From positions 1-20,812 of the forward strand of contig JAJRZD010000092.1 of the NCBI GenBank assembly GCA_024275415.1: a stretch of DNA of 20,812 bases. The letters run 5' to 3'. Source of the stretch: an archaeon. Its GTDB lineage: Archaea; Asgardarchaeota; Thorarchaeia; Thorarchaeales; Thorarchaeaceae. The number at the start of each line of letters is the position of its first letter. Position 1 is the stretch's first letter. The notes beneath the pieces were generated by a model, which was not told the origin of the DNA, did not search any database, and saw only the letters and a list, made by a program, of their open reading frames with translations. The position numbers and the translations under genes were made by a program. Positions 1,830-18,821 of the stretch are shown one piece after another.

Positions 1830-3722
1830 ATGAACCACAAATACAAGGCTTTCACAATCATCCTCGCTATGATGGTACTTGGCGGTACTGTGATGCCCCT
1901 GGCCATTTTCCAAACAACGACCAGCATAGCACCATCAAGCAATCGTGCAGAGGTACTAGCGGCAACAGACCTTGTTGTCGAGAACAGCACTATCAACATC
2001 AACGGGGAATTCAACGATGATGATTTCCTGTTCTATGTGTACAATGGTACCTTTGAGATATCTGGCGCTAATGTTACACTCTACAATGTAACTGACAGCA
2101 GCAAGTACGCATCAAAACTAACTATAGGCGATGGTTCCGCAACGTTCTTTGATGTGCCGTTCGGTATGTGGGAATGGAATGTCACATGGGGTGGCACTTC
2201 ATTGAACGGTTCGATGGCTTCAGATGGCCCCGAGGCGTTCTCCTCACTGACTATCGGTAATCTCGATTGGGAGAACGATGACGATGACATTCTCGTTGCC
2301 GTTACAGACATTGAAGGAGATCCTGGTGAGGGACTCAATTTCACAATCTATAACCGTGACACCAACACCACGTATCAGGAGTTCCTACTCCCCGCAGATG
2401 GTATCGCGAATGTGAGTGATATTCCTATCGGCAATTACACGTACTATGTGACCGTTGCAGCAAACGAATACGCTGGGGCAGTCCTGATTGCAGAAAATTT
2501 CACTACTGATGGAACCACTCTGAAAATGCATCAGACAATTGGGCCCATTACGGGGTTGCAGGAATACTATGACCTTGAAGTGTTCACCCACTACGAAACG
2601 ACTCTTGCACCCCTACAGGGAGCTCTTGTCAATGTCACGTACTACAATGGCACAGTCATCGAGTATCAATACACACCTGCTAATGGTACTGTTATATTCG
2701 TAGACCTGCCCGTGGCATTTGTCAATTGGACCGTGAGCTACTTGGGAAGCCCAATCGAAGATGGCTCATACTCGTACAATTTGACTACACTCAGTACTGA
2801 CATTCGGAGCCCAGTAATCGCATCGCCAGGTGATCAAGAATTCTTGATTGGTACAGAGAACATCACGATAACATGGAACATCACTGACGAGTATCCGGCC
2901 GAAATCAACTTCTATGTTGATGACAGTTTGGAAGAAACACAAACATGGACCAACCAGACCTCGTACACGTTCAATGCAAGCGATTTCGAGATTGGAGTCT
3001 ATGAGCTAAAGCTTGTTGCAACGGATCTGAACGATAACACGGCTGAGGACACCATCTCACTGAGGATCTTCGAGAATACCACTCCAGTAATTGTCGGCCC
3101 CGAAGACTTCGAGTTGTACTATACCGAAGTGGGTGAAACCATTCGATGGAATTTCACCGAGGAAAATCCCGATTTCTACATTCTGTACAAGAATGGCGAG
3201 TCAGTCGTGAATGGAACACTCAATCCAGACAGTCCATTCTTCACGTACACGATAAATGAGGTTCTTGAAATTGGCGAGTACAACTACACCTTCTGGATGA
3301 ATGACACCAGTGGGAATTGGGCAACAGATGATGTGGCAGTCACAATCAAGGCAGATGATATTGCCCCAGTTATCACCTACGAGCCTCCTACTGTGACATA
3401 TGCTCAGGGTGACCCAGACATCATCCGAAATTGGACTGCCAGCGATGATTACATGGACACCTATGCGATCTATGTCGATGGCGTTCTTATTGTGGAAGAT
3501 GATTGGATTTCTGAAACGATCGAGTTCGATTTCGCTGGATTAAGCATGGGCGAACATGAAGTCAGACTAGTGGTGACCGATCTTGGTGGCAACACCGCTG
3601 AATCCACAGTCCAAGTCATCGTTTCAATGCCTAATACCATCTCCATCTTATTGATAATAGCAGCAATCAGCGGAATCGTTGTTGCTGCTGCTGCAGTCTT
3701 CTGGTTCATTAAGCATCATTAG
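1830..3722 (+). CDS. Membrane-anchored cell-surface glycoprotein with tandem beta-sandwich (CnaB-like and Ig-like) domains
   Basis: 630 aa. N-terminal signal-like hydrophobic segment, C-terminal TM helix with a 3-residue tail (KHH), acidic and Thr-rich. About 26 N-x-S/T sequons counted by hand. Three C-terminal repeats of pattern PVI..W...D..GN.A...V. Confidence 0.8.
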   Translation: MNHKYKAFTIILAMMVLGGTVMPLAIFQTTTSIAPSSNRAEVLAATDLVVENSTININGEFNDDDFLFYVYNGTFEISGANVTLYNVTDSSKYASKLTIGDGSATFFDVPFGMWEWNVTWGGTSLNGSMASDGPEAFSSLTIGNLDWENDDDDILVAVTDIEGDPGEGLNFTIYNRDTNTTYQEFLLPADGIANVSDIPIGNYTYYVTVAANEYAGAVLIAENFTTDGTTLKMHQTIGPITGLQEYYDLEVFTHYETTLAPLQGALVNVTYYNGTVIEYQYTPANGTVIFVDLPVAFVNWTVSYLGSPIEDGSYSYNLTTLSTDIRSPVIASPGDQEFLIGTENITITWNITDEYPAEINFYVDDSLEETQTWTNQTSYTFNASDFEIGVYELKLVATDLNDNTAEDTISLRIFENTTPVIVGPEDFELYYTEVGETIRWNFTEENPDFYILYKNGESVVNGTLNPDSPFFTYTINEVLEIGEYNYTFWMNDTSGNWATDDVAVTIKADDIAPVITYEPPTVTYAQGDPDIIRNWTASDDYMDTYAIYVDGVLIVEDDWISETIEFDFAGLSMGEHEVRLVVTDLGGNTAESTVQVIVSMPNTISILLIIAAISGIVVAAAAVFWFIKHH

Positions 3723-7735: not shown

Positions 7736-8641
7736 TCAGGCAATCTCGGCTGAGCTTTGTTGTTCCTGATGATTGCTCTCTTCCATCTCCAGTGGTGTGA
7801 TTAACAACCCTTCGCCTGTGATCTTTAGCACAACACGCTTTCCAATTCCCGCAAGACGACGGACTGTTTCGGGAATAACCAGCCTGCCTTTTGCATCGAC
7901 TTCTGAGATGTCTCCGAACAGGGTGTGTTTCTGTCCTTCTATCAACCCATCTCGAATCCTCAGAACTCTGTCGGCATAGGCTGCGACTCTTGGGGAGTGT
8001 GTGACATTCACGATAGTGGTCTGAAACTCCCTGTTCATGGTCTTGAGGGTGTCCATCACCATCTTGGCAGTTTCAGTATCAAGTTCACCAGTCACCTCGT
8101 CTGCCAACAGCAACTCGGGCTTGTTTGCAAGAGCTACACAGATTGCTACCCGTTGGTTCTCACCACCTGAGAGCTGGTGGGGCTTGTGCTTCATTCGCTT
8201 TTCCAGTCCTACAGCTTCAAGAAGCAGCTTTGCTCTCTGCGCAGAAGGCCCCTTGGGAGCCCCTGCAAGTCGCATCGGTAACATGACATTCTTCAATGCT
8301 GTAAGCCCTGGGACAAGATTGCCAGTTTGCCAAACGAACCCGACTTTCTGCCTCCGGTAAAGCATCGCCCTTCGGTCATTCAACAGGGTCACGCTGTGAC
8401 CATCATAGAGGATGGATCCAGCAGTGGGTTTATCCAATGCTCCAAGAAGTTTAAGCAGTGTAGATTTTCCTGAACCTGAAGGACCGACAATGGAAAGAAA
8501 CTCTCCTGGTGCCACCTCAAAGTCAAGACCGCGAAGGGCAATGACCTCCTTCATTCCTCTCTTGTAGACCTTCATTAGGTCGCGTACCACGATTTTGTTC
8601 TTTTTGATTACTTCTTCAAGATTCTCTGACATGATTATCAC
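7736..8641 (-). CDS. ABC ATPase (LolD/MacB family) with C-terminal AbrB/MraZ-like domain
   Basis: Walker A GPSGSGKS, signature LSGGENQR, Walker B LLLADE, H-loop VTH. C-terminal EVDAKGRLVIPETVRRLAGI..V.L....GLLITP. GTG start overlaps the upstream TGA; ATG 8632 is an alternative. Confidence 0.92.
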   Translation of the reverse strand: MIIMSENLEEVIKKNKIVVRDLMKVYKRGMKEVIALRGLDFEVAPGEFLSIVGPSGSGKSTLLKLLGALDKPTAGSILYDGHSVTLLNDRRAMLYRRQKVGFVWQTGNLVPGLTALKNVMLPMRLAGAPKGPSAQRAKLLLEAVGLEKRMKHKPHQLSGGENQRVAICVALANKPELLLADEVTGELDTETAKMVMDTLKTMNREFQTTIVNVTHSPRVAAYADRVLRIRDGLIEGQKHTLFGDISEVDAKGRLVIPETVRRLAGIGKRVVLKITGEGLLITPLEMEESNHQEQQSSAEIA

Positions 8642-11481
8642 TCCGCATATTGTATTTCCTCTGCGATATTCCTCTTGAGCGCCTTGCCGGCCACAACAAA
8701 GGTTGCTCCGAGCGCAAATACAAAGCTAATCAGGAAAATAATGCCAAGTACAAACCAAGGCGCATTCAACATTACAGGGAGCCGTGTCCACATGGCCAAT
8801 GTATCAGTCCCAATATAGATTAGTGGCATATTGATAGAGTAGACGGCAAGCAGTCCTCCAAGGAGTGTTCCAATCCCCAGTGAGATCATCACGCTCATCG
8901 CGGTGTCTACCAATACTATCCGCTTTATCTCCTTGGTTTCCGTACCGAGCGCTCGCAATATAGAGAAGTTTCGCCGTAATGAGCTAATCCTGACGCTGGC
9001 AACGATTATCGCTCCAATTGAGAGATAGATGATAGTAAACAGGACATTCAGCGTATAGACTCCATATATCGATTGGCTTGCCTTCGACTCTTGGGCTTGT
9101 TCAATGCCAGTATACGGCGATTCGATAGCACTAAAGCTATATTGTGTTAGATTGTGAAGACGGTTCATGACTGACCTGTAATCAGCAGTTGGCTCGATGC
9201 TGACCAAGAACTTGTTCACACTTGAGGTGTTCAAGTATTTGTGAACGAAATCAATGTTTGCAACGACAAAATAGGACGTGTCAGGTTCGCCTTGCAAATA
9301 CTTCTGATTATCCCAAAAATCTGGAGAACGAGCCATGACATCGACAATTTTCATGTTTGTGACATTGGCCCACTTTTTAGTCCGGAAAGATATGGAAATA
9401 TCTTCCCCGTATACAGGTGTACGTGAGTAGCCTTCACCTTGGTAATGATCAACAGGTCTAAAGGACGCTAGAACATTGTTCTCATCTTCTAACATCTTGG
9501 ATACTGCAAGACTTGGCTCATTCTCAAGTGTAAAGTAGGATAGCCAAAATGCAGATTCAAGCCAAGTGCTTGGATCAACACCGTAAATGAGCATGGATTG
9601 GTTAACAAAATCCCTAGAATAATAATAGGACGTATAGAATGAAACATATTGGTATATCTTGAACACTGGAGTGACTGAAGCCACGCCTTCAACTGCGGTG
9701 ATGTTATCCAAAAAGTCCAGTGTCACGTTCGTTAGTCCCTCCTTGACAGTGATTGAGATATCAGCACCAGTGTAGAACTTGTACACGGATTCAGTATGAA
9801 CGGATGCTGTTTCTGCGGATATCCCCGACATGACGGATACAGTGAACACAAGGGCTATGAATATCACACCCAGTGCTTCGCTTTTCTTATACGAGAGAAG
9901 GGTTCGTGACATGACCTTTGCTCCTACTCTTGCCGTCCGCATCCCAATCTTTCCAAGGATTGATGCTTTGATAGTTGCAGTCGGTCTCGCTAGGAGCCGC
10001 GAGAAAGAAAGCACGAATATTGCCATCATGGGAATGAGCATCATCAGGAGGAAAACTTGCATCTCTCTGAAATATGATACATATGAGATCAGAGTAAGGA
10101 TTGGCACAAGGATGTATCCTGCAATACCTAGGGCTACTACATCCACCATGACGTTACCTAGGTTCTCCTTTGAGAGCAAGACATCTCGCTCCACCACTGA
10201 ATGAGCTTCGGTGGCGGTCATAAGAAAAGACCTTACCGCCATTGGTAAGGCTGTCAGCAATCCGACTCCAAACGCAAAGACGAAAACAGCAGCTAGTGAT
10301 GGGAGAGATGCTATTATTGCCAGACCGGACAACCGCGTGAAATCAAAAACGAGCAGCAATTTCACTGTTGTCGAAAGTAATGCAGAAGCCCACCCAACGA
10401 GGAGCGCGCCCAGAGAACCTATCAACCCTGTGACTACAGCACTTCCGACGATCCAGTTGAACGCCTGCCATCCAGAGGCTCCACGGGTCTTGATTGTCCC
10501 GATATCTCTTCTGATTTCATCCGTGTGCAGCGTAGAGTTGTAGTATACAAGTAGGATGCCCATTACAATGGTCGGGATTGAGAATGCAAAGGCTAGCATC
10601 GTCATTGATAAGTACCATGCTTGATACTGTCGTATCGCATCACGAAGTTCGAATGAAGTGACAATTGCATAAGGAAGTGCATTTTGCTCAAACTGTCGTC
10701 GGATACTATCCAACGAATCGAACATGTTCTCGTCGTTCTGGTCAATGACGGAGTTCTCATTTATTGAAACCCAATACTGCTCAGATATGGCAAACGATTG
10801 TCCATATCCGATACTAGAGAAGTCTGTGTTAATCGCATCTTTGGTGGTAATCATGACAAGAGATGTATCACTGTCTGAGTACTCTTCGTAGTAGTAGTAG
10901 TATTCGTTTTCAAAAATGTTTGATTTGAAAGTGCCGACAATCAGGTACGATGCATTGACCTGGATCTCGTTCCAATACTCATCGTATGTTGTGACAGTCG
11001 CGTTGTAATAGTCGCCTATCGAGTACCCCCATTTATTGAAGAAACCTATCTCCAGATAGCAAGTGTCATTTGAAAGCGGGGGGACGTTGGATTCGAAATC
11101 CACCACACTCGGGAATGTATCGAAAAACGAGTCTTCGACTCCAAGATATACTGCCCTCGAGTAATAGTAATACCCCCCTTCATCGTATTCAAGAGTCACA
11201 TACGTATCCAAGACACTTAAAGGCTCGACTTCATCAACATAACTTGACGCCAAGAGTGCCTCAATATCCTCAATGCGTGTAGTATTCTGCTCATAGAATG
11301 CAGATGTGATAGCAATTTCCATATCGACATCCAAATTCTGTGTGAGATCGCTCAGGACTTTGGGACGTGTGTTTTCCATGTAGAAGAGGATACCACCAAC
11401 TATCCCTGCGGATAGTGAGAATATGAGGAACGTCGCTAGTATTTGAGGTTTCTTTGCTAATAGACGGGAAAGTAGGAACAC
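8638..11481 (-). CDS. Large FtsX/MacB-family ABC permease
   Basis: 947 aa with two repeats of TM + large extracytoplasmic domain + 3 TM. FtsX-type motifs RRDIGTIKTRGAS and RRNFSILRALG. GTG start overlaps the upstream TAG (TAGTG). Confidence 0.88.
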   Translation of the reverse strand: MFLLSRLLAKKPQILATFLIFSLSAGIVGGILFYMENTRPKVLSDLTQNLDVDMEIAITSAFYEQNTTRIEDIEALLASSYVDEVEPLSVLDTYVTLEYDEGGYYYYSRAVYLGVEDSFFDTFPSVVDFESNVPPLSNDTCYLEIGFFNKWGYSIGDYYNATVTTYDEYWNEIQVNASYLIVGTFKSNIFENEYYYYYEEYSDSDTSLVMITTKDAINTDFSSIGYGQSFAISEQYWVSINENSVIDQNDENMFDSLDSIRRQFEQNALPYAIVTSFELRDAIRQYQAWYLSMTMLAFAFSIPTIVMGILLVYYNSTLHTDEIRRDIGTIKTRGASGWQAFNWIVGSAVVTGLIGSLGALLVGWASALLSTTVKLLLVFDFTRLSGLAIIASLPSLAAVFVFAFGVGLLTALPMAVRSFLMTATEAHSVVERDVLLSKENLGNVMVDVVALGIAGYILVPILTLISYVSYFREMQVFLLMMLIPMMAIFVLSFSRLLARPTATIKASILGKIGMRTARVGAKVMSRTLLSYKKSEALGVIFIALVFTVSVMSGISAETASVHTESVYKFYTGADISITVKEGLTNVTLDFLDNITAVEGVASVTPVFKIYQYVSFYTSYYYSRDFVNQSMLIYGVDPSTWLESAFWLSYFTLENEPSLAVSKMLEDENNVLASFRPVDHYQGEGYSRTPVYGEDISISFRTKKWANVTNMKIVDVMARSPDFWDNQKYLQGEPDTSYFVVANIDFVHKYLNTSSVNKFLVSIEPTADYRSVMNRLHNLTQYSFSAIESPYTGIEQAQESKASQSIYGVYTLNVLFTIIYLSIGAIIVASVRISSLRRNFSILRALGTETKEIKRIVLVDTAMSVMISLGIGTLLGGLLAVYSINMPLIYIGTDTLAMWTRLPVMLNAPWFVLGIIFLISFVFALGATFVVAGKALKRNIAEEIQYAE
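10888..10902 (-). repeat. (TAC)5 trinucleotide run encoding YYYYY inside the permease
   Basis: The plus strand reads GTA five times at 10888-10902. Confidence 0.85.
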
Positions 11482-14288
11482 TACACATCACCTCCGTATG
11501 GACCACTCTCAGCCCATGAAGCGTTAAGTGCTTCAGACAGGTTTATTCTCGTACTCAAGATTGAAACTACAAGTGCAAAGAGGATTGCCGTGCCAACGAA
11601 GAATAATAGCACCGTAAGCATCGTCAACATTGGGAATACTGGATAGACCGACACCGGGAACGTATATACCGACGTCCTAATCCCAATCAGTGTGTTGATG
11701 ATGTAGAGAGGCCCAAATACAACAAGCAACAAAATGCTTGCGAGAATCAACATTGATATTTCAGCCAACTGTGCTTTAAGCACTAATCTTCTGCTTCCGC
11801 CCATAGACCTGATGAGAGCTATCTCTCGTTTTCTCGCAGTGACCCCTTCAAAGGCGTAGATGATGAAACCTGCGAAAATCACTGCAGACGTTGCAATCGA
11901 CAACAATGTATCAACAGCCCTATCAATCCTATAGGCGGTGCTGGATGTGAACGATTCAACTTCGTATGTGACCGCGGCCCATCCATTTTGTTCAGGAAAC
12001 ACTGTATCCCCACCTTGACTGAGAATGTCCTGAACGAACGCGGTACCATTCACTCCTTTCTTTGTCCGTACACACAGAATGTTCTCAGTGTCGTTTGCGA
12101 GAGATACTAATGAGCCCAAGTACTCGTTGTTGACCCAGAACGTATTAGTACCGACTGAAGTATCATAGAAGTAAAAACCGTAATCTGGGTTCGACCCTGT
12201 ATCCAGAAGCATTGAGTTTGATAGTGCGTCTGCAATTCCCACAATTGTGAACACAAAGAATTCAGATGAGTCGTAGTACGAGAATGCGCGAATCGAATCT
12301 CCTGTGGATAGATCATATTTGGCAGCTATATCAGAAGTGATGATTGCACCACTGGGAGTTGCTGCAAGAGTTTCCATCAGAGGCGAAAGGTCGCTTGAAT
12401 TTAGCTGGACGCCCCATTGGTCATAGCCTACATATTGAAATTCAAGAGGGTTCATCCCTACTATGTAGGCACGATCATAGTACTCAGATGACAGAATCAC
12501 CTTTATTTTGTTTATTGTGGTCGCAGCAGCAGTGGACGCATGGGCTGTCACATTCGCAGTAAAGTTTGTCCAAGCCGGAGTAGGATAGCTTCCAAGATGA
12601 AATGCCACATCCCCTCCAAATGCGAAACGGCCATGATTTTGTTTTGTCAACGGCATTGAACTATCAATTACAGAGTACGTCCATGATATGCTGATTGCAA
12701 GGACAAGGATCAAGACGGTAATGCCACCTGATGAAGCGCCCTTTCCAAGTCGTCGTACCCCAATTGACGAGGGTAAGATGCCCACAATCCTATTCATGCC
12801 TCTCGATAGGATATTCGCCCCCCTGCGAAGGCCTTTGATGGTCAAGCTTCCTAGCGATACGAGTAGTACAAGAGGCATAATTCCGGCTAGCATCGCCAAT
12901 AATGGAGCATATTGCAGTGCTCGACCCAAACTCGATAGACCGATCAGCATGAGAGCAGATAGGACGAATAATATGACGTCCCACCGTATTATTGCAAGAA
13001 TCCTTGCCACTTTCTCAAGCTTGCCTGTACTCTCATCGACTTTCCGTTTTGTAGAGTAAATCCCATTGTATCCAATCCAAGTGAACAGAGGAAGGAGTAC
13101 TCCTATCACGACTGCAAAAATGATAGACTCCACGCTTATCAAGAATGGCTCAGTGAAGAATAGAGATACATCAAACTTGAAGAATCCTGTCGATGCCAAG
13201 CCGATTCTACTGAGCAGAACTCCTACTCCCAGACCAACCAGTGTGCCTATAATAGTAAGAAACGCTATCTCTTTGAGGATTCGCCGTTCGATATCAGAAC
13301 GGGCAGCACCTCTTGACATCAGCATACTGTTTTCATAGCGACGGTCATTCATGTTAAAACGAATGGACAGAAACACCACAAGCACGACCAAAAGTATGGA
13401 TGCAGCAGACCGGATAATCTGGGTGAACCTAGTCATTGTCTGCCAATTGATATAGTCTGATACGGCTCGTGCTAAAAAGTCATTCACCCATATATTGTAC
13501 GAGTAGTATTCTGGAGGGTTATAAAGTGGATCCATCTCACGGATTGATTCTTCAATATTCAGCAGATATGACAGCGACTGCTGAGGATTGAACGGAGTCA
13601 GCTGCGTCCTGTCTACATCTAATGAAATCTCTGTTTCGAGATAAAGGTCGTATCCATCGACCAACTCAGGTACAACTAATGCTGTTGTTTCGCCCCAGTA
13701 CCCGTACCCATAGCCGTACTGGGAGGATATGGAATCTGTGAAGATACCGCATATTGTCAGGAGTCGATAGACACCCTCTATCTCGCCATAGGGTGAGATT
13801 GTTTCTTCGATTGTATAGTTTAGCGTATCACCAATCCAGATATCCATTGATTCTGCCAGGATCGGTGAGATTGCAATTGAACTCGTGTTTTCTGGGATGT
13901 GCCCTTCAACAAACTGGAACCTGTCTGGAAATATTTCAGAGTATTCTTCTGAAACGATTCCAACCCTTGCATAACTCCCATAATAGTAGTCATTATCTGC
14001 TCCGCCGACATTGGCGACCGTTGTATGGACATATTCCATCGAGGCAGCATGTGTCACCTCTGGAAGGTTTGTGATTTCGTCCACATAACGTTGTACAGAT
14101 TCGCCTCCAACGGTCATCGCAACAGGCCCTACGTTCCCAACACGGTCGTCCCATTCGTGAATCGAATAGGAATCGATATACACGAAAATGCCCATTGCCA
14201 TCGCAGACGCGAGAAATAGACAGAGTAGAGAGATAGATTTTCTACGCATACCCTGTAGTGCCTCATAACCAACTGGAATCGCAGACAT
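11481..14288 (-). CDS. Large FtsX/MacB-family ABC permease
   Basis: 935 aa with the same duplicated architecture. Motifs RRYENSMLMSRGA and RKREIALIRSMGG. SD-like GAGGGA upstream. Confidence 0.88.
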   Translation of the reverse strand: MSAIPVGYEALQGMRRKSISLLCLFLASAMAMGIFVYIDSYSIHEWDDRVGNVGPVAMTVGGESVQRYVDEITNLPEVTHAASMEYVHTTVANVGGADNDYYYGSYARVGIVSEEYSEIFPDRFQFVEGHIPENTSSIAISPILAESMDIWIGDTLNYTIEETISPYGEIEGVYRLLTICGIFTDSISSQYGYGYGYWGETTALVVPELVDGYDLYLETEISLDVDRTQLTPFNPQQSLSYLLNIEESIREMDPLYNPPEYYSYNIWVNDFLARAVSDYINWQTMTRFTQIIRSAASILLVVLVVFLSIRFNMNDRRYENSMLMSRGAARSDIERRILKEIAFLTIIGTLVGLGVGVLLSRIGLASTGFFKFDVSLFFTEPFLISVESIIFAVVIGVLLPLFTWIGYNGIYSTKRKVDESTGKLEKVARILAIIRWDVILFVLSALMLIGLSSLGRALQYAPLLAMLAGIMPLVLLVSLGSLTIKGLRRGANILSRGMNRIVGILPSSIGVRRLGKGASSGGITVLILVLAISISWTYSVIDSSMPLTKQNHGRFAFGGDVAFHLGSYPTPAWTNFTANVTAHASTAAATTINKIKVILSSEYYDRAYIVGMNPLEFQYVGYDQWGVQLNSSDLSPLMETLAATPSGAIITSDIAAKYDLSTGDSIRAFSYYDSSEFFVFTIVGIADALSNSMLLDTGSNPDYGFYFYDTSVGTNTFWVNNEYLGSLVSLANDTENILCVRTKKGVNGTAFVQDILSQGGDTVFPEQNGWAAVTYEVESFTSSTAYRIDRAVDTLLSIATSAVIFAGFIIYAFEGVTARKREIALIRSMGGSRRLVLKAQLAEISMLILASILLLVVFGPLYIINTLIGIRTSVYTFPVSVYPVFPMLTMLTVLLFFVGTAILFALVVSILSTRINLSEALNASWAESGPYGGDV

Positions 14289-14297
14289 GTAGATCCC

Positions 14298-14999
14298 TCA
14301 CTCATTGTTCACGATCTTGCCATCACGCATGTTGTATACTCGGTCCATCTTCGCACCAACATCAGGGTCGTGGGTGACTACAAGAAGTGTCCCGCCTTCC
14401 TTCTTTGTAAGGTCAAGGAGGACACGCATGATCTCTTCTCCGGTTTGTGTATCGAGGTCGCCTGTTGGCTCGTCAGCTAGAACGACTATTGATCTTGTTT
14501 CTTCAGGGGGTTTTGCCAGGGCCCGTGCTATGGCGACACGTTGTTGTTCGCCCCCACTCAGCTCATCAGGACGGTGGTCTGCCCGTTCTGATAGTCCCAC
14601 AATCTCAAGGAGGTAATCGACACGTTCCTTTCTTGTTTCTTCTTCCACTCCTGCAATCAGCAATGGGAGTTCTACATTCTCGTATGCTGTCAGAACTGGC
14701 AGTAGATTGAAGAACTGAAAAACAAAGCTAATCTTGTTGCGTCGAATTCGTGTAAGCTCATTCTCCTTCATGGATGTGATGTCGATACCGTCAATACTGA
14801 CAGTCCCACTTGTCGGACGGTCAAGTGCACCTATGAGGTTGAGAAGAGTTGTCTTGCCTGAGCCCGATGGACCCATGATCCCTATTGCCTCGCCAGGTTT
14901 CACCTGCAATGTCACACCTCGCAGGGCAGCAACCTCAATCTCACCCATCTGGTATATCCTAGAAACACCATTTACGTCTACGATGAAATTCTCGCTCAA
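14298..14999 (-). CDS. ABC ATPase (LolD/MacB family)
   Basis: 233 aa. GPSGSGKT, LSGGEQQRVAIARAL, VLADEPTGDLD, VTHD. TTG start preceded by GGAGAGGG. Confidence 0.95.
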   Translation of the reverse strand: MSENFIVDVNGVSRIYQMGEIEVAALRGVTLQVKPGEAIGIMGPSGSGKTTLLNLIGALDRPTSGTVSIDGIDITSMKENELTRIRRNKISFVFQFFNLLPVLTAYENVELPLLIAGVEEETRKERVDYLLEIVGLSERADHRPDELSGGEQQRVAIARALAKPPEETRSIVVLADEPTGDLDTQTGEEIMRVLLDLTKKEGGTLLVVTHDPDVGAKMDRVYNMRDGKIVNNE

Positions 15000-15623: not shown

Positions 15624-16280
15624 ATGAGCGAACGTATGATGTCCAAGACCGAATTCCCCATGAGGCATGAGTTCTTTAGTGTCAAGGGTGCAATATCTGG
15701 CGCAGCTGTAATAATGCTTTCACTGTTCGCTCAATCCATGATAAGTTTCCCCCAAGTATGGACGGAACAGCCCGTCCAGTTCCTAGGATTCATCATCTCG
15801 TCGGGACTGACCGTGGCAATTGCTTCTGGCGCTGTGCTGGTCTATCTGTATCCTCCAGATCAGGATGTGATAGGCGTTGCTGCTTTGGGTAGTGACGACC
15901 TGACACAACACATTGCTCTTTTCCTAGTCATAACGTCACTCATCGAACCTATACTGGCAGGGTTTGTGTTCTTCTACGAGTACTTTGGTACGGATCCATT
16001 TGTTATCATCTGGGTTATGGCTGGCTTTGCTGCACCAAGTATAGGGTTTACAGTCAGCATGTTCGATAGGACTTCGGCCATTGCAGCAGATCTCAGACGA
16101 CACTTCACCAAACATTCGACTCTCGATCTCTCCGAGCTTGATTGGTTACATGGACTGGGACCCAGAACATCAGTATATCGAATGGGGATGCTTGAAAATG
16201 CTGCATCTAAGGTTGAGGGACTAAGGATTCGCGGGCACCTTCTAGTCAAGGAAAAAGATCAATTCGTGATTCCTAGTTAG
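15624..16280 (+). CDS. Hypothetical membrane protein (about 4 TM + soluble C-terminal domain)
   Basis: 218 aa. Four hydrophobic segments followed by about 70 hydrophilic residues. Confidence 0.75.
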   Translation: MSERMMSKTEFPMRHEFFSVKGAISGAAVIMLSLFAQSMISFPQVWTEQPVQFLGFIISSGLTVAIASGAVLVYLYPPDQDVIGVAALGSDDLTQHIALFLVITSLIEPILAGFVFFYEYFGTDPFVIIWVMAGFAAPSIGFTVSMFDRTSAIAADLRRHFTKHSTLDLSELDWLHGLGPRTSVYRMGMLENAASKVEGLRIRGHLLVKEKDQFVIPS

Positions 16281-16289
16281 TTGGATTAC

Positions 16290-16604
16290 TCAGCTATGAC
16301 GTTTTTGTATGTGAACTAAGAGACCCTCTTCAGTCCACGCTACCCATTCACACTTCAGGCAGCTGAATTTACTACTTCCGAGTCCGAATCGTGGAGCGGC
16401 CTTTGCTTTGAGTTCGTATATCGTGCCCCCATATCCACTGCTTTTCTTGGTGGTGATCTTGAATCGTTTCTCAAAGCATTCTTGACAGATACCCAGTTTT
16501 TTCATCTCATCGACCATGAAACTGTCCTCAAGTGTCTTGACAGATGGGAGGGAGCCAATATCGTTCCCGCAACTTTCACAGTGATTTGCAGTTATGATGA
16601 CCAT
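16290..16604 (-). CDS. Two-zinc-finger protein (CxxC-x27-CxxC plus C-terminal C2H2)
   Basis: 104 aa from ATG 16604 (preceded by AGGAAG): C9ESC12..C40QEC43 and F-S-C82LKC85-x12-H98-x4-H103. The longer ORF from 16814 overlaps the GTPase gene, so the upstream part is probably non-coding. Confidence 0.8.
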   Translation of the reverse strand: MVIITANHCESCGNDIGSLPSVKTLEDSFMVDEMKKLGICQECFEKRFKITTKKSSGYGGTIYELKAKAAPRFGLGSSKFSCLKCEWVAWTEEGLLVHIQKRHS

Positions 16605-16698: not shown

Positions 16699-18156
16699 TC
16701 ATAGCACCGTGGTATAAAACTCTGATGCTGTCTTAAAGACATCAGTAGTTCCTTCGCCTGTGAGGCATGAGGTTTCGATGAAAGCCACTGGATGTAAGTT
16801 GTTCTCATCACCAAGGCGCTTTGCCAAGGTTTCAGCCATCTTGAAACCCTCGTCGCTAGTCACAGCAGGTTCGAGCGGATCCGGTTCGCCTGAATCGCGG
16901 ATGTCCTTCTTGTTACCAACAATCACGACAGGGGGAATCTTTTGATGCTTTATGGTTGCCTCCCGTAGCCAGAAGTCAATGCTCTCGAAACTCCACCTGT
17001 CAGAAACCGCATAGATGATTATGATCACATCGACCTCATCATAGAATTCTTTGCGAGATATTCTCATCTGAGCGGCATCGTCGAAAAGCCACACATTCAG
17101 GTTTACCCGATAATCATCAAGTTGGAACAGCCCAGACCGAATGTGGGACTGCGCTTCACCCTCGTCGTTTTGTGGGACACGAAGTTGTGCTTTTTCCACA
17201 AGACTATGTTTGCCAACACCGTCTTCACCCAACAAAACGGCTTTTGCAGAAACAAGAGGCTTTACAGCATGGATCGGAGTCCTTCTCGTAGGGGTCAAGA
17301 CTTCCTCAGTTCGCGCAGGTTCTGTCGTCGTGTCAGTCTGGACTTCCTCATCAATGGCTTTCTGGGCGACACGAGGCGGAACATCTGGTACGGAAGCAAC
17401 AGGTGAGGTGACCGGCGATGTCTGTGCTTCAGTGGTCATTTCGTCCATGTGTGGAACAATTATCTCATCTGTTGTGTCGGCAGGTGATACAGTATCTACC
17501 TGATCCTCAATTAGACTGGGCTCACTTGGTATTGTCGCGTCCGAGGCCTCGATAGTTTCGACACCTTGCACAGTGATCTTGATTTGAGGTCGTGTCTTTG
17601 AAAGACTGGCAGCACCTGTGGGTGCCATGAAAGAATCACTAAGCCGCTCTACGGCATAAAGGGCATCCTCGATGTCTGGCATGTCTTTCTCTGTAATCAG
17701 AACGACTTCACCGGGTTGGATATCTATCTTCTTAGAAGGCTCGGTTTCTTTCACTATCTCAAGCCTGCTTGCAGGTTCTATAGGCATCTCATGATACGTT
17801 GTGGTACTCGTGAGCGCGGAAGGGACTTCATCAGATGTAACAGGAGGCGCAGTATCAGCTGACTCTTGAACCACTCCAGTTGTCTGAGATATGATACGTT
17901 TTGCTCTTGGGACTCCTATCTTTATCAAGGTGTCCGCAATGGTGCCGGGAGGAAGAATCTTTCCTTGCGCCTTGAAGAAAATCTCAAGATCCTCTGCTAC
18001 GTCTTCAAAAGACCTGTTCCTCACAGGAATCTTCTTCTTTACCATACCTTTATCCCGCACTTCCACATACCCGGGAAGCAATGTGACGGCTATAGTTGTT
18101 CCAGGCACTCTCAGAGATCTCATACCCCATTGGAATCTTTTGTCTAAGAATGTCAC
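16699..18156 (-). CDS. Ras-superfamily small-GTPase-like protein with long N-terminal extension and degenerate G1-G3 motifs
   Basis: 485 aa. The C-terminal ~180 aa show the Ras fold pattern: KAVLLGEDGVGKH, IIIIYAVSDRWSFESIDFW, PVVIVGNKKD, FIETSCLTGEG..VF. Residues ~90-300 are low-complexity and P/T/E/S/D-rich. Confidence 0.85.
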   Translation of the reverse strand: MTFLDKRFQWGMRSLRVPGTTIAVTLLPGYVEVRDKGMVKKKIPVRNRSFEDVAEDLEIFFKAQGKILPPGTIADTLIKIGVPRAKRIISQTTGVVQESADTAPPVTSDEVPSALTSTTTYHEMPIEPASRLEIVKETEPSKKIDIQPGEVVLITEKDMPDIEDALYAVERLSDSFMAPTGAASLSKTRPQIKITVQGVETIEASDATIPSEPSLIEDQVDTVSPADTTDEIIVPHMDEMTTEAQTSPVTSPVASVPDVPPRVAQKAIDEEVQTDTTTEPARTEEVLTPTRRTPIHAVKPLVSAKAVLLGEDGVGKHSLVEKAQLRVPQNDEGEAQSHIRSGLFQLDDYRVNLNVWLFDDAAQMRISRKEFYDEVDVIIIIYAVSDRWSFESIDFWLREATIKHQKIPPVVIVGNKKDIRDSGEPDPLEPAVTSDEGFKMAETLAKRLGDENNLHPVAFIETSCLTGEGTTDVFKTASEFYTTVL

Positions 18157-18260
18157 TCAAGGTCTTAACTGTTTCGCGGGCGAGCGGTCAAAAAACTAGG
18201 AAATTCATTTGGACAGAAAGAAATATGTTCACATTGTGAAGCTCCAAGGGTGAACGAATT

Positions 18261-18821
18261 ATGACAGAGATTGATTTTAGAGACTATGTGGAAGTGATAA
18301 AGGATTGGCCTGAACCCGGCAAAGCGGTTTGCGACATAAGCCGCTTGTTGGAACATCCTACAGTCTTTCATGAGGCTGTCGTTCGTTTGGCGAAGCCATT
18401 TCTTGATGTGCAACCGAACAAGGTGATTGGCATAGAGCAGCGTGGCCTTGCATTGGGCAGTGCCGTTGCATACTATCTAGGCTGTGGTATTATCCCTGCT
18501 CGCTCTATTGCATACCTTCCGGAGGACTACAGCAGACCTGTGGAGTTTATCCCAACTGATAGACTGGCTGACCGAAGGCTGGCACTTGTAGCCGAGTCTA
18601 TCGATCCTGGTGATCGGGTGGCAATAGTCGATGATTGGTTGGTACATGGTACTTCGGTGCTGGCAGTTGAGAAGATTGTGGAAAAGCTCGGTGCTCAAGT
18701 CGTTGGTGTTGCCTGTGTAATCAATAATCTCTCTGAAGCTCGCCGAAAGCTTCTTGGACGCCCTGAGATACACTCGCTCATCGAGAATCTGGAAACCGAT
18801 ATGTTTAGACACACTGATTGA
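18261..18821 (+). CDS. Adenine phosphoribosyltransferase-like protein (type I PRTase), divergent
   Basis: 186 aa. DWPEPG..DI (cf. DFPKPG..DI), GIEQRG (cf. GIEARG), PRPP-binding RVAIVDDWLVHGTS. No symbol given because catalytic motifs deviate. Confidence 0.75.
   Translation: MTEIDFRDYVEVIKDWPEPGKAVCDISRLLEHPTVFHEAVVRLAKPFLDVQPNKVIGIEQRGLALGSAVAYYLGCGIIPARSIAYLPEDYSRPVEFIPTDRLADRRLALVAESIDPGDRVAIVDDWLVHGTSVLAVEKIVEKLGAQVVGVACVINNLSEARRKLLGRPEIHSLIENLETDMFRHTD

Follow-up and report, generated by a model that had tools for sequence, protein, structure and literature searches.

The locus and its product

The window analyzed here, a stretch of 20,812 nucleotides from an archaeon of the Thorarchaeaceae (contig JAJRZD010000092.1 of assembly GCA_024275415.1), carries on its minus strand an open reading frame (ORF) at 16699-18156 that encodes a Ras-family protein with degenerate GTPase motifs. 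This ORF had been described, with its strand unstated, in an earlier reading made from the letters of the DNA (hereafter the sequence-only reading). Our results make it probable that the protein is a non-cycling pseudo-GTPase adaptor, and that its family had a single origin among the Rab-like (RasL) small GTPases of Thorarchaeota.

The longest form of the ORF begins at a GTG codon at position 18156 and yields 485 amino acids, which is the numbering used in the sequence-only reading. The true start is probably the ATG at 18123 (M12 of the 485-residue form), because the database gene call for this protein (P0002) is 474 amino acids long and the N-termini of its orthologues align at M..(I/R)VPGTT. 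With this start, the gene of the putatively tethered, Rab-like pseudo-GTPase occupies 16699-18123 (minus strand, with its stop codon at 16699-16701) and encodes 474 amino acids. All features of the protein described below lie on the same strand; residues of motifs are given in the 485-residue numbering and boundaries of domains and linkers in the 474-residue numbering.

The Pfam Ras model (PF00071) matched residues 305-477 of the 485-residue form with an E value of 5.7e-17 and a score of 62.2 bits, which is far beyond chance given the cut-off of 21.6. In the AlphaFold2 (AF2) model the corresponding segment, residues 285-474, had a predicted local distance difference test score (pLDDT) above 95, and structure comparison with Rab, Ras, Rho and RGK proteins gave Z scores of 20.5-21.5. 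The assignment to the Asgard Ras superfamily made in the sequence-only reading was thus borne out by the Pfam match, and also by an archaeal TATA-binding protein gene at 78-662 of the window, by 39 Ras-family matches in the 3.5-Mb source genome, and by the named orthologues, almost all of which come from Candidatus Thorarchaeota assemblies. Members of the family are labeled in databases as "Rab family GTPase", "GTPase SAR1 family protein" or hypothetical. Every sequence string quoted in that reading was found at the residues given for it, and its statement that the protein lacks a CaaX tail also holds: the C-terminus reads ...EFYTTVL and contains no Cys.

Loss of the GTPase motifs is shared by the whole family

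The G domain (residues 283-474; 16702-17277), which appears to be derived from Rab/RasL proteins, has degenerate G1, G2 and G3 motifs. At least 197 proteins of 266-849 amino acids matched the whole pseudo-GTPase at E ≤ 0.001, and residues were counted column by column in an alignment of 120 orthologues (A1) of 367-513 amino acids. The P-loop (GEDGVGKHS, with K316, H317 and S318; 17203-17229) keeps its Lys and has His in place of the Ser/Thr that ligates Mg2+, and therefore reads GKH where cycling GTPases have GxxxxGK[S/T]. Gly310, Glu311, Val314, Gly315 and Lys316 are invariant in the 120 orthologues, Gly313 is present in 115 of them, and position 318 is Ser or Thr in 115. Position 317 itself is highly variable (Arg in 34, Glu in 29, His in 20, Lys in 14, Gln in 9, Gly in 6, Ser in 4, Ala in 3 and Thr in none). 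All of the other 30 full-length Ras-family domains in the source genome read GK[S/T].

The switch I region (EGEAQSHIRSGL; 17128-17163) lacks the G2 Thr and has a Tyr/His/Phe-Ile pair where Rabs have Thr-Ile. In the window protein (GEAQS337H338IRSGLF) there is no Thr at all between α1 and β3, and in the family the column that precedes the conserved Ile is occupied by Tyr (83), His (22) or Phe (15), with no conserved Thr. The remnant of G3 and switch II reads WLFDDAAQ (W356 to Q363; 17068-17091) in the window protein and WSFDLAVK in the family consensus. HMMER aligned this region in two ways, with and without a gap. Without the gap, Asp57 corresponds to L357, Gly60 to D360 and the catalytic Gln to A361, which is invariant, and this register (Ser/Leu357 at Asp57) is favored by the AF2 model, in which β3 ends one residue past the Trp and a helix begins at Phe358. 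DxxGQ is lost under both registers: the column at the DxxG Gly holds Val (106), Ala (11) or Ser (3) and Gly in none of the 120 orthologues under either alignment, and position 363 is Lys in 84, Asn in 14, Arg in 8 and Gln in only 7, so that there is no conserved catalytic Gln. The region is nonetheless under strong constraint, with Trp356, Phe358, Ala361, Arg368 and Tyr372 invariant and Asp359 present in 119 of 120 sequences; position 357 is Ser in 110 and Leu in the window protein. The spacing from this Trp to the following F/YY is 14 residues in the pseudo-GTPase and in Rabs alike.

The two guanine-recognition motifs are intact in the window protein and in the family. G4 reads NKKD (N415KKD; 16903-16914), with the Asn, the Lys and the Asp invariant in all orthologues, and G5 reads ETSC (E461TSC; 16765-16776), with Glu in 109, Thr in 109, Ser in 119 and Cys in 97 of 120. 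Most family members have NK[I/T]D at G4 (consensus NKIDLR). G4 is followed by an acidic insertion rich in Pro and Gly (IRDSGEPDPLEPAVT; 16858-16902), which opens gaps of 7 and 4 residues in alignments with Ypt6 and Ypt51, respectively. AF2 models it as a 6-residue helix and then a loop, with a pLDDT of 85; the Rho insert is a helix of ~13 residues.

Mean column identity over the G domain is 68%, and the same motif substitutions recur in 16 genera. Canonical GKS/T and DxxG in the orthologues had been named in the sequence-only reading as signs of recent decay, and the column counts do not show this combination. Recent decay is refuted by the number of homologues, by the columns of the 120 orthologues and by the clade-wide distribution described below, and the degeneracy is instead an ancient and maintained trait of the family.

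The motif readings on which the sequence-only reading was built (GKH at G1, no Thr in switch I, loss of DxxG, intact NKKD and ETSC) are thus all present in the protein. Three of its further claims fared less well, namely that the Gln of G3 is kept, that two His residues at the Mg-ligand positions might alter metal preference, and that the protein resembles RhoA. Gln363 is replaced by Asn in the closest orthologues and by Lys in most others. His317 and His338 occur together in 1 of 120 sequences, which is the window protein itself; the nearest orthologues have GKH with Tyr in switch I, and together with the variation at position 317 (R/E/H/K/Q) this led us to reject a His-His metal site. The first two claims, and much of the likeness to RhoA, rest on residues peculiar to this lineage.

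Phyletic range and relatives without the P-loop lysine

Nearly every genome of one family-level clade has the gene, mostly in single copy. A profile of the N-terminal domain (described below) found it in 68 of 76 genomes of this clade and in the single genome of a sister family, and in none of 224 genomes that represent 28 further families of the phylum. Similarly, a G-domain profile at E ≤ 1e-30 detected it in 40 of 43 genomes of the family, in the one sister-family genome searched, and in 0 of 157 others.

Scores fell into tiers, with the orthologues at 224-334 bits, a set of paralogues at 158-171 bits and the sister-family form at 138 bits. The paralogue set consists of six sequences from at least three genomes, with P-loops reading GVG[IV]NS or QVGVKS. 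These proteins and the sister-family form (DVGMSS) have lost the P-loop Lys and have kept NKTD or NKID and ETS[TI]. Their existence indicates that further loss of nucleotide-binding residues is tolerated in this clade, which fits a lineage in which catalysis is dispensable. It also means that intact G4 and G5 motifs are no proof of guanine binding.

Some of the Lys-less paralogues (GEDGVGINS, with NKTD and ETST kept) stand in tandem (L003:783-3461, plus strand, and L003:1-591, minus strand; L006:654-3142). They carry a weaker version of the same N-terminal domain and mid-linker helix, and in two different genomes they adjoin a gene for a small leucine-rich-repeat protein. The sister-family orthologue (L007:882-2579, minus strand) has 565 amino acids, with Met for the P-loop Lys (GEDDVGMSS) and a linker in which TETKVEAP is repeated many times. 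A convergent ORF for a 165-residue protein with multiple transmembrane (TM) segments comes next, and no zinc-finger gene is found there.

The G domain is Rab-like and not Rho-like

A specific affinity to Rho was unlikely at the outset, because published trees place Asgard RasL proteins outside the split of eukaryotic Rab, Ras and Rho. In these trees the Asgard "Rab-like" proteins belong to a RasL group that also contains eukaryotic Rab, Ras and Rho, united in one clade, and no Asgard sequence is specifically sister to eukaryotic Rabs; taxon-specific divergent Asgard groups are mentioned as still undefined (10.1101/2024.02.28.582541).

A profile of 60 G domains of the family (A2) was searched against all PDB sequences. 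The best 60 matches were all Rab/Ypt proteins (among them Ypt51, Rab1A, Ypt6, Rab14 and the Thorarchaeota Rab, at 58-72 bits) and included no Rho. In a single-sequence search RhoA scored 38.6 bits, aligned over the full domain, against 45.6 bits for Ypt6. A word-indexed search with the G domain alone returned 15 fragments, all of its own family. In the structure comparison the Thorarchaeota Rab (7ezb) led with a Z score of 21.5 and a root-mean-square deviation of 2.0 Å over 154 residues at 29% identity, and since Ras, Rho and RGK proteins all followed within 1 Z, this comparison does not separate them.

A maximum-likelihood tree was built from 15 family members, three divergent relatives and 30 other Ras-family domains of the source genome, and did not include eukaryotic Rho, Rab or Ras. 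In this tree a single clade with an SH-aLRT of 99 unites the family. Its stem measures 1.45 substitutions per site, and the clade nests with three canonical paralogues (SH-aLRT 97). Two of these three were searched against PDB, and their best matches were the Thorarchaeota Rab and Rab1/8/11. Altogether, the profile matches, the Rab-like nearest paralogues, the consensus NKIDLR and the prevalence of NK[I/T]D speak against the Rho link of the sequence-only reading, in agreement with the published RasL trees. The insertion that had suggested this link is present and lies at the site of the Rho insert, shorter as described there (4-7 residues more than in Rab/Ypt proteins), and may or may not be homologous to it. 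On this sequence evidence the G domain is best regarded as Rab/RasL-derived. It is not a Rab in the eukaryotic sense, as it shows only partial elements resembling RabF2, RabF4 and RabF5 (RI.L.VW, FY.DA and IIVYA) and has no prenylatable Cys.

An orphan N-terminal domain, a disordered linker and a conserved helix

The first 78 residues (17890-18123) form a domain of four β strands followed by two helices. AF2 run on the family alignment gave pLDDT values above 90 for residues 1-75 in the full-length model and 87 for the domain alone. The domain is basic (net charge +7) and as well conserved as the G domain (mean column identity 68%), with an invariant pattern GTT...E.RDKG..KKK...L.PG...IG.P. 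in which E.RDKG..KKK forms a hairpin. An exhaustive search of its profile against 1.84 billion cluster representatives found 40 proteins, and in all but one weak outlier the domain was N-terminal in the present architecture or the protein was a fragment.

Pfam gave no match for this domain or for the linker helix region. In Foldseek searches of PDB the best E value for the domain was 0.56, with no clear fold match, and in VIA comparisons with 48,161 chains the best Z score was 5.9, to a de novo design, which is below the noise level of the tool; scattered matches resembling PH, PTB and FERM-F3 domains (Z 3.4-4.5) were lower still. A structure search of the ESM Atlas returned only unnamed bacterial hypothetical proteins, and an Atlas feature search returned no usable match. 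The domain is an orphan that is specific to this pseudo-GTPase architecture.

Between the two folded domains lies a region (residues 80-283) that ranges from 147 to 240 amino acids over the family. It begins with an acidic, disordered linker rich in Thr, Pro and Ser (residues 79-134; 17722-17889; pLDDT 42-46), whose mean column conservation is 0.37 as compared with 0.70 for the folded domains. A conserved amphipathic helix follows (residues 145-166, EKDMPDIEDALYAVERLSDSFM; 17626-17691; AF2 pLDDT 87-88), with Ala154, Leu155, Val158, Ser162 and Phe165 (474-residue numbering) invariant and a regional conservation of 0.67. The second linker (residues 171-282; 17278-17613) is again disordered and acidic, rich in Thr and Pro, with a net charge of -13, pLDDT values of 44-50 and a conservation of 0.33. 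Outside the N-terminal domain, the helix and the G domain the model is disordered, with pLDDT below 50. The sequence-only reading had proposed a compact N-terminal domain of ~85 residues and a Pro/Thr-rich acidic linker of ~210 residues. Both were found, the domain at ~75 residues; the linker is not featureless, as it contains the conserved helix, which that reading did not mention.

Two clade-specific neighbors

Downstream of the pseudo-GTPase gene and co-directional with it lies a gene for a zinc-finger protein of 104 amino acids with C4 and C2H2 sites (16290-16604, minus strand), which starts 94 nucleotides past the pseudo-GTPase stop codon. In an alignment of this protein (A4), which has invariant Cys/His residues, the CxxC...CxxC site and the GYGG...PRFGxGS linker do not vary; the protein also has a C2H2 site. 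Its Pfam matches were weak (C2H2 and FYVE), and a profile search of PDB gave only weak C2H2 matches (CTCF, E 0.0099). According to the coordinates from two genome searches, the zinc-finger gene stands on the same contig and strand, 1,315-2,218 nucleotides from the start of the pseudo-GTPase gene, in 58 of 61 genomes, and at least one of the three exceptions is due to a contig break. In a closed chromosome that encodes a 42%-identical orthologue, the start of the zinc-finger gene abuts the stop codon of the pseudo-GTPase gene. In another genome of the same genus, the zinc-finger ORF (L011:1498-1812, plus strand) has an in-frame TAA at its third codon, which points to a start further downstream or to an assembly error.

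The next gene is convergent (15624-16280, plus strand) and encodes a protein of 218 amino acids which, by hydropathy and charge counts, has four TM-like segments and a basic C-terminal tail of 72 residues; the positive-inside rule makes a cytoplasmic location of both ends probable. It was present and convergent after the zinc-finger gene in 28 of 29 fetched loci. Pfam gave no match for this 4-TM protein, and PADLOC reported nothing for any of the three genes.

Co-occurrence of the three genes was determined in one sample of 201 Asgard genomes. The pseudo-GTPase, zinc-finger and 4-TM genes were found in exactly the same 38 genomes of the clade, the 4-TM gene in single copy, and all three were absent from the same six genomes of the clade (one of which is 97% complete) and from all 157 genomes of other families. 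This pattern supports a functional unit without proving it, because adjacent genes vanish together in fragmented assemblies. In a complex prediction with the full-length protein, the zinc-finger protein and two Zn ions, the score was 0.00 against a mark of 0.32; the run had no controls and is evidence neither for nor against an interaction.

Upstream, a divergent phosphoribosyltransferase gene (18261-18821, plus strand) is syntenic in the two loci that were examined. An ORF for 82 amino acids at 18165-18413 (minus strand), between this gene and the start of the pseudo-GTPase gene, was rejected as probably not a gene. It has no family match, it falls in the region of the divergent promoter and overlaps the phosphoribosyltransferase gene, and gene calls at orthologous loci do not include it.

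Elsewhere in the window, the minus strand of 7736-14999 carries two large genes for FtsX-type permeases (947 and 935 amino acids), each paired with an ABC ATPase gene. Weak matches to MraZ/MazE (AbrB-like) proteins (E 5e-4 and 5e-3) were obtained for a C-terminal stretch of the ATPase encoded at 7736-8641. On the plus strand, 1830-3722 encodes a protein of 630 amino acids with several weak matches to Ig-like, PKD and prealbumin-like folds, which is probably a surface protein.

A probable non-cycling adaptor and its alternatives

The residues that coordinate Mg2+, sense the γ-phosphate and carry out catalysis are gone from the G domain, while its fold and surface are strongly constrained. For this reason we infer that the domain does not run a Mg-dependent switch cycle between GTP and GDP and would instead present a fixed protein-binding surface. 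A guanine nucleotide is probably held as a structural ligand, as in class ii pseudoGTPases, or else the pocket may be empty, as in class i. PseudoGTPases have been divided into classes, of which class ii binds nucleotide without catalysis and includes Rnd1 and Rnd3 (PMC5593906, Table 2). The degraded catalytic motifs and the evolutionary maintenance of that state, as seen in the columns, the distribution and the tree, are those of class ii. The nucleotide binding that this class implies is suggested by the intact P-loop Lys, G4 and G5, a suggestion weakened by the Lys-less paralogues.

In the arrangement we propose, some 200 residues of acidic disordered linker with one conserved helix would tether the G domain to the basic orphan domain, through which the protein may attach to a partner or surface. 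The most likely candidates for partners are the zinc-finger protein and the 4-TM membrane protein encoded beside it, since they share the narrow phyletic range of the pseudo-GTPase and their adjacency to it is kept. The working picture would then be a membrane-anchored tether with a Rab-like head. A more specific version, which we put forward as speculative and think doubtful, is that the products of the three orphan genes form one physical machine, in which the cytoplasmic tail of the 4-TM protein or the zinc-finger protein captures the basic N-terminal domain and so holds a Rab-like head, permanently "on" in shape, ~200 disordered residues from the membrane.

Several points weigh against the adaptor as we have drawn it. 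Part of the family has Glu (29 of the 120 orthologues) or Ser (4) at position 317, and Ser357 (110 of 120) or Asp359 (119 of 120) could help to hold a metal, so that some members might bind Mg-nucleotide in a non-canonical way. The retention of NKTD and ETST by the Lys-less paralogues, mentioned above, weakens the case for guanine binding by the conserved G4 and G5. The perfect co-occurrence of the three genes is partly trivial, as neighboring genes are lost together with a missing contig, gene order inside one taxonomic family can persist by descent alone, and the sister-family orthologue has no zinc-finger gene downstream.

The first alternative is that the family consists of nucleotide-free, class i pseudoGTPases like CENP-M, the pG1 and pG2 domains of p190RhoGAP, and AAGAB, with NKxD and ETSC retained only to stabilize the fold or because they contribute to a protein interface. 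Neither Mg ligand remains in the family, and the relatives with GVG[IV]NS and DVGMSS keep NKxD and ETS[TI] when phosphate binding should be crippled, which shows that these motifs can persist without canonical GTP binding. However, P-loop residues Gly310, Gly313 (115 of 120), Gly315 and Lys316 are as conserved in the family as in working GTPases, and the class i pseudoGTPases known so far have generally lost G4 and G5 as well. We therefore regard an empty pocket as rather unlikely.

The second alternative is an active but non-canonical GTPase of class iii, similar to the RGK proteins, in which hydrolysis or switching would rely on relocated residues (such as Ser/Thr318, Ser357, Asp359 or Arg368) or on residues supplied in trans by the zinc-finger protein or by the other subunit of a dimer. 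The family retains the P-loop glycines and Lys together with NKxD and ETSC, and the polar residues beside the lost motifs are near-invariant (Ser/Thr318 in 115, Ser357 in 110, Asp359 in 119 and Arg368 in 120 of 120). Furthermore, the RGK proteins REM1 and REM2 lie within 1 Z of the best structural matches and hydrolyze GTP despite divergent G motifs (PMC5593906), and migrated catalytic residues are possible in pseudoenzymes (PMC10211241). On the other side, the hypervariability of the Mg-ligand position (R/E/H/K/Q/G/S/A) argues against a specific catalytic role there, and Ser/Thr318 matches the residue that normally follows the Mg ligand in Ypt proteins (GKTSL in Ypt6, GKSSI in Ypt51) and was probably inherited, not recruited. 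The window protein has Leu at position 357, and close relatives tolerate loss of the P-loop Lys. Activity of this kind thus seems unlikely to us.

That the gene is a Rab-like one in recent decay, or an assembly artefact, and has no function is suggested by nothing except the degenerate motifs themselves and is extremely improbable in view of the intact ORF, the many homologues, the sharing of the substitutions by 16 genera, the 68% column identity of the G domain and the conserved synteny.

We therefore favor the non-cycling adaptor. Asgard archaea carry dozens of Ras-superfamily genes, almost none of which has a known partner or role, and here a family that is strongly conserved, its GTPase chemistry dismantled, comes with two equally clade-specific neighbors as a defined set of three proteins. 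If the adaptor reading is correct, the "scaffold" solution of pseudo-GTPases, which is known mainly from eukaryotes, would have arisen independently inside the archaeal Rab-like radiation. If the three proteins do form one machine, it would be a prokaryotic and prenylation-independent counterpart of a membrane-anchored Rab, recruiting effectors without a GTP cycle. The family has no bearing on the origin of Rho, and being lineage-specific it says little directly on eukaryogenesis. We found no paper in the literature that describes this family or any Asgard pseudoGTPase. What is new here is the three-gene cluster with its matching phyletic range, the orphan N-terminal domain, the conserved linker helix, the rejection of the Rho and His-His ideas and the caution that attaches to G4 and G5 as signs of guanine binding.

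Comparison with known systems

RhoA has its insertion at the same topological site after G4, and the window protein reads GNKKD[IL]R as RhoA does. The insertion of the pseudo-GTPase is shorter, however, and is acidic, rich in Pro and Gly and, in the model, mostly loop. The family also differs from Rho proteins in that its profile ranks 60 Rab/Ypt proteins above any Rho and in that its nearest paralogues are Rab-like.

With CENP-M, the G domain of the dynein light intermediate chain, p190RhoGAP pG1/pG2 and AAGAB, the pseudo-GTPase would share the use of a G-domain fold as a protein-protein interaction module in a larger assembly. In CENP-M, the dynein light intermediate chain and p190RhoGAP pG1/pG2 the base-recognition motifs are lost as well. 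The present family, in contrast, keeps the P-loop Lys, NKxD and ETSC, and its Lys-less paralogues are closer to class i. None of these four scaffolds binds nucleotide (PMC5593906; PMC12490416); in AAGAB, conserved residues of the G motifs are missing and the G4 and G5 regions no longer support guanine binding (PMC12490416).

The Thorarchaeota Rab (PDB 7EZB, 7EZD and 7EZE; PMC10933270) has the same fold, NKxD and ETS, a GxxGVGK P-loop and the RabF-like elements W/FY/IIVY. Neither it nor the pseudo-GTPase has a prenylation tail, and in our tree the family stands beside canonical RasL paralogues of the same genome. Unlike Asgard RasL proteins, the pseudo-GTPase lacks the Ser/Thr of GK[S/T], the Thr of switch I, DxxG and the Gln; it has the insertion after G4 and a second one of 11 residues, with an invariant L-H-P, before β6; it carries ~280 additional N-terminal residues (orphan domain, linker and helix); and its stem branch is long, at 1.45 substitutions per site.

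Rnd1 and Rnd3 are eukaryotic Rho-family proteins with CaaX tails and have no N-terminal tether. Rnd proteins have lost only catalytic residues and retain both DxxG and the Ser/Thr that binds Mg, whereas the pseudo-GTPase family has lost both Mg ligands too, and its GTP binding is predicted. What the two have in common is a Ras-superfamily fold in which the motifs of the nucleotide pocket are kept and the catalytic and switch II residues are degraded and, by analogy with Rnd1 and Rnd3, the pseudo-GTPase would be expected to bind constitutively and not to cycle.

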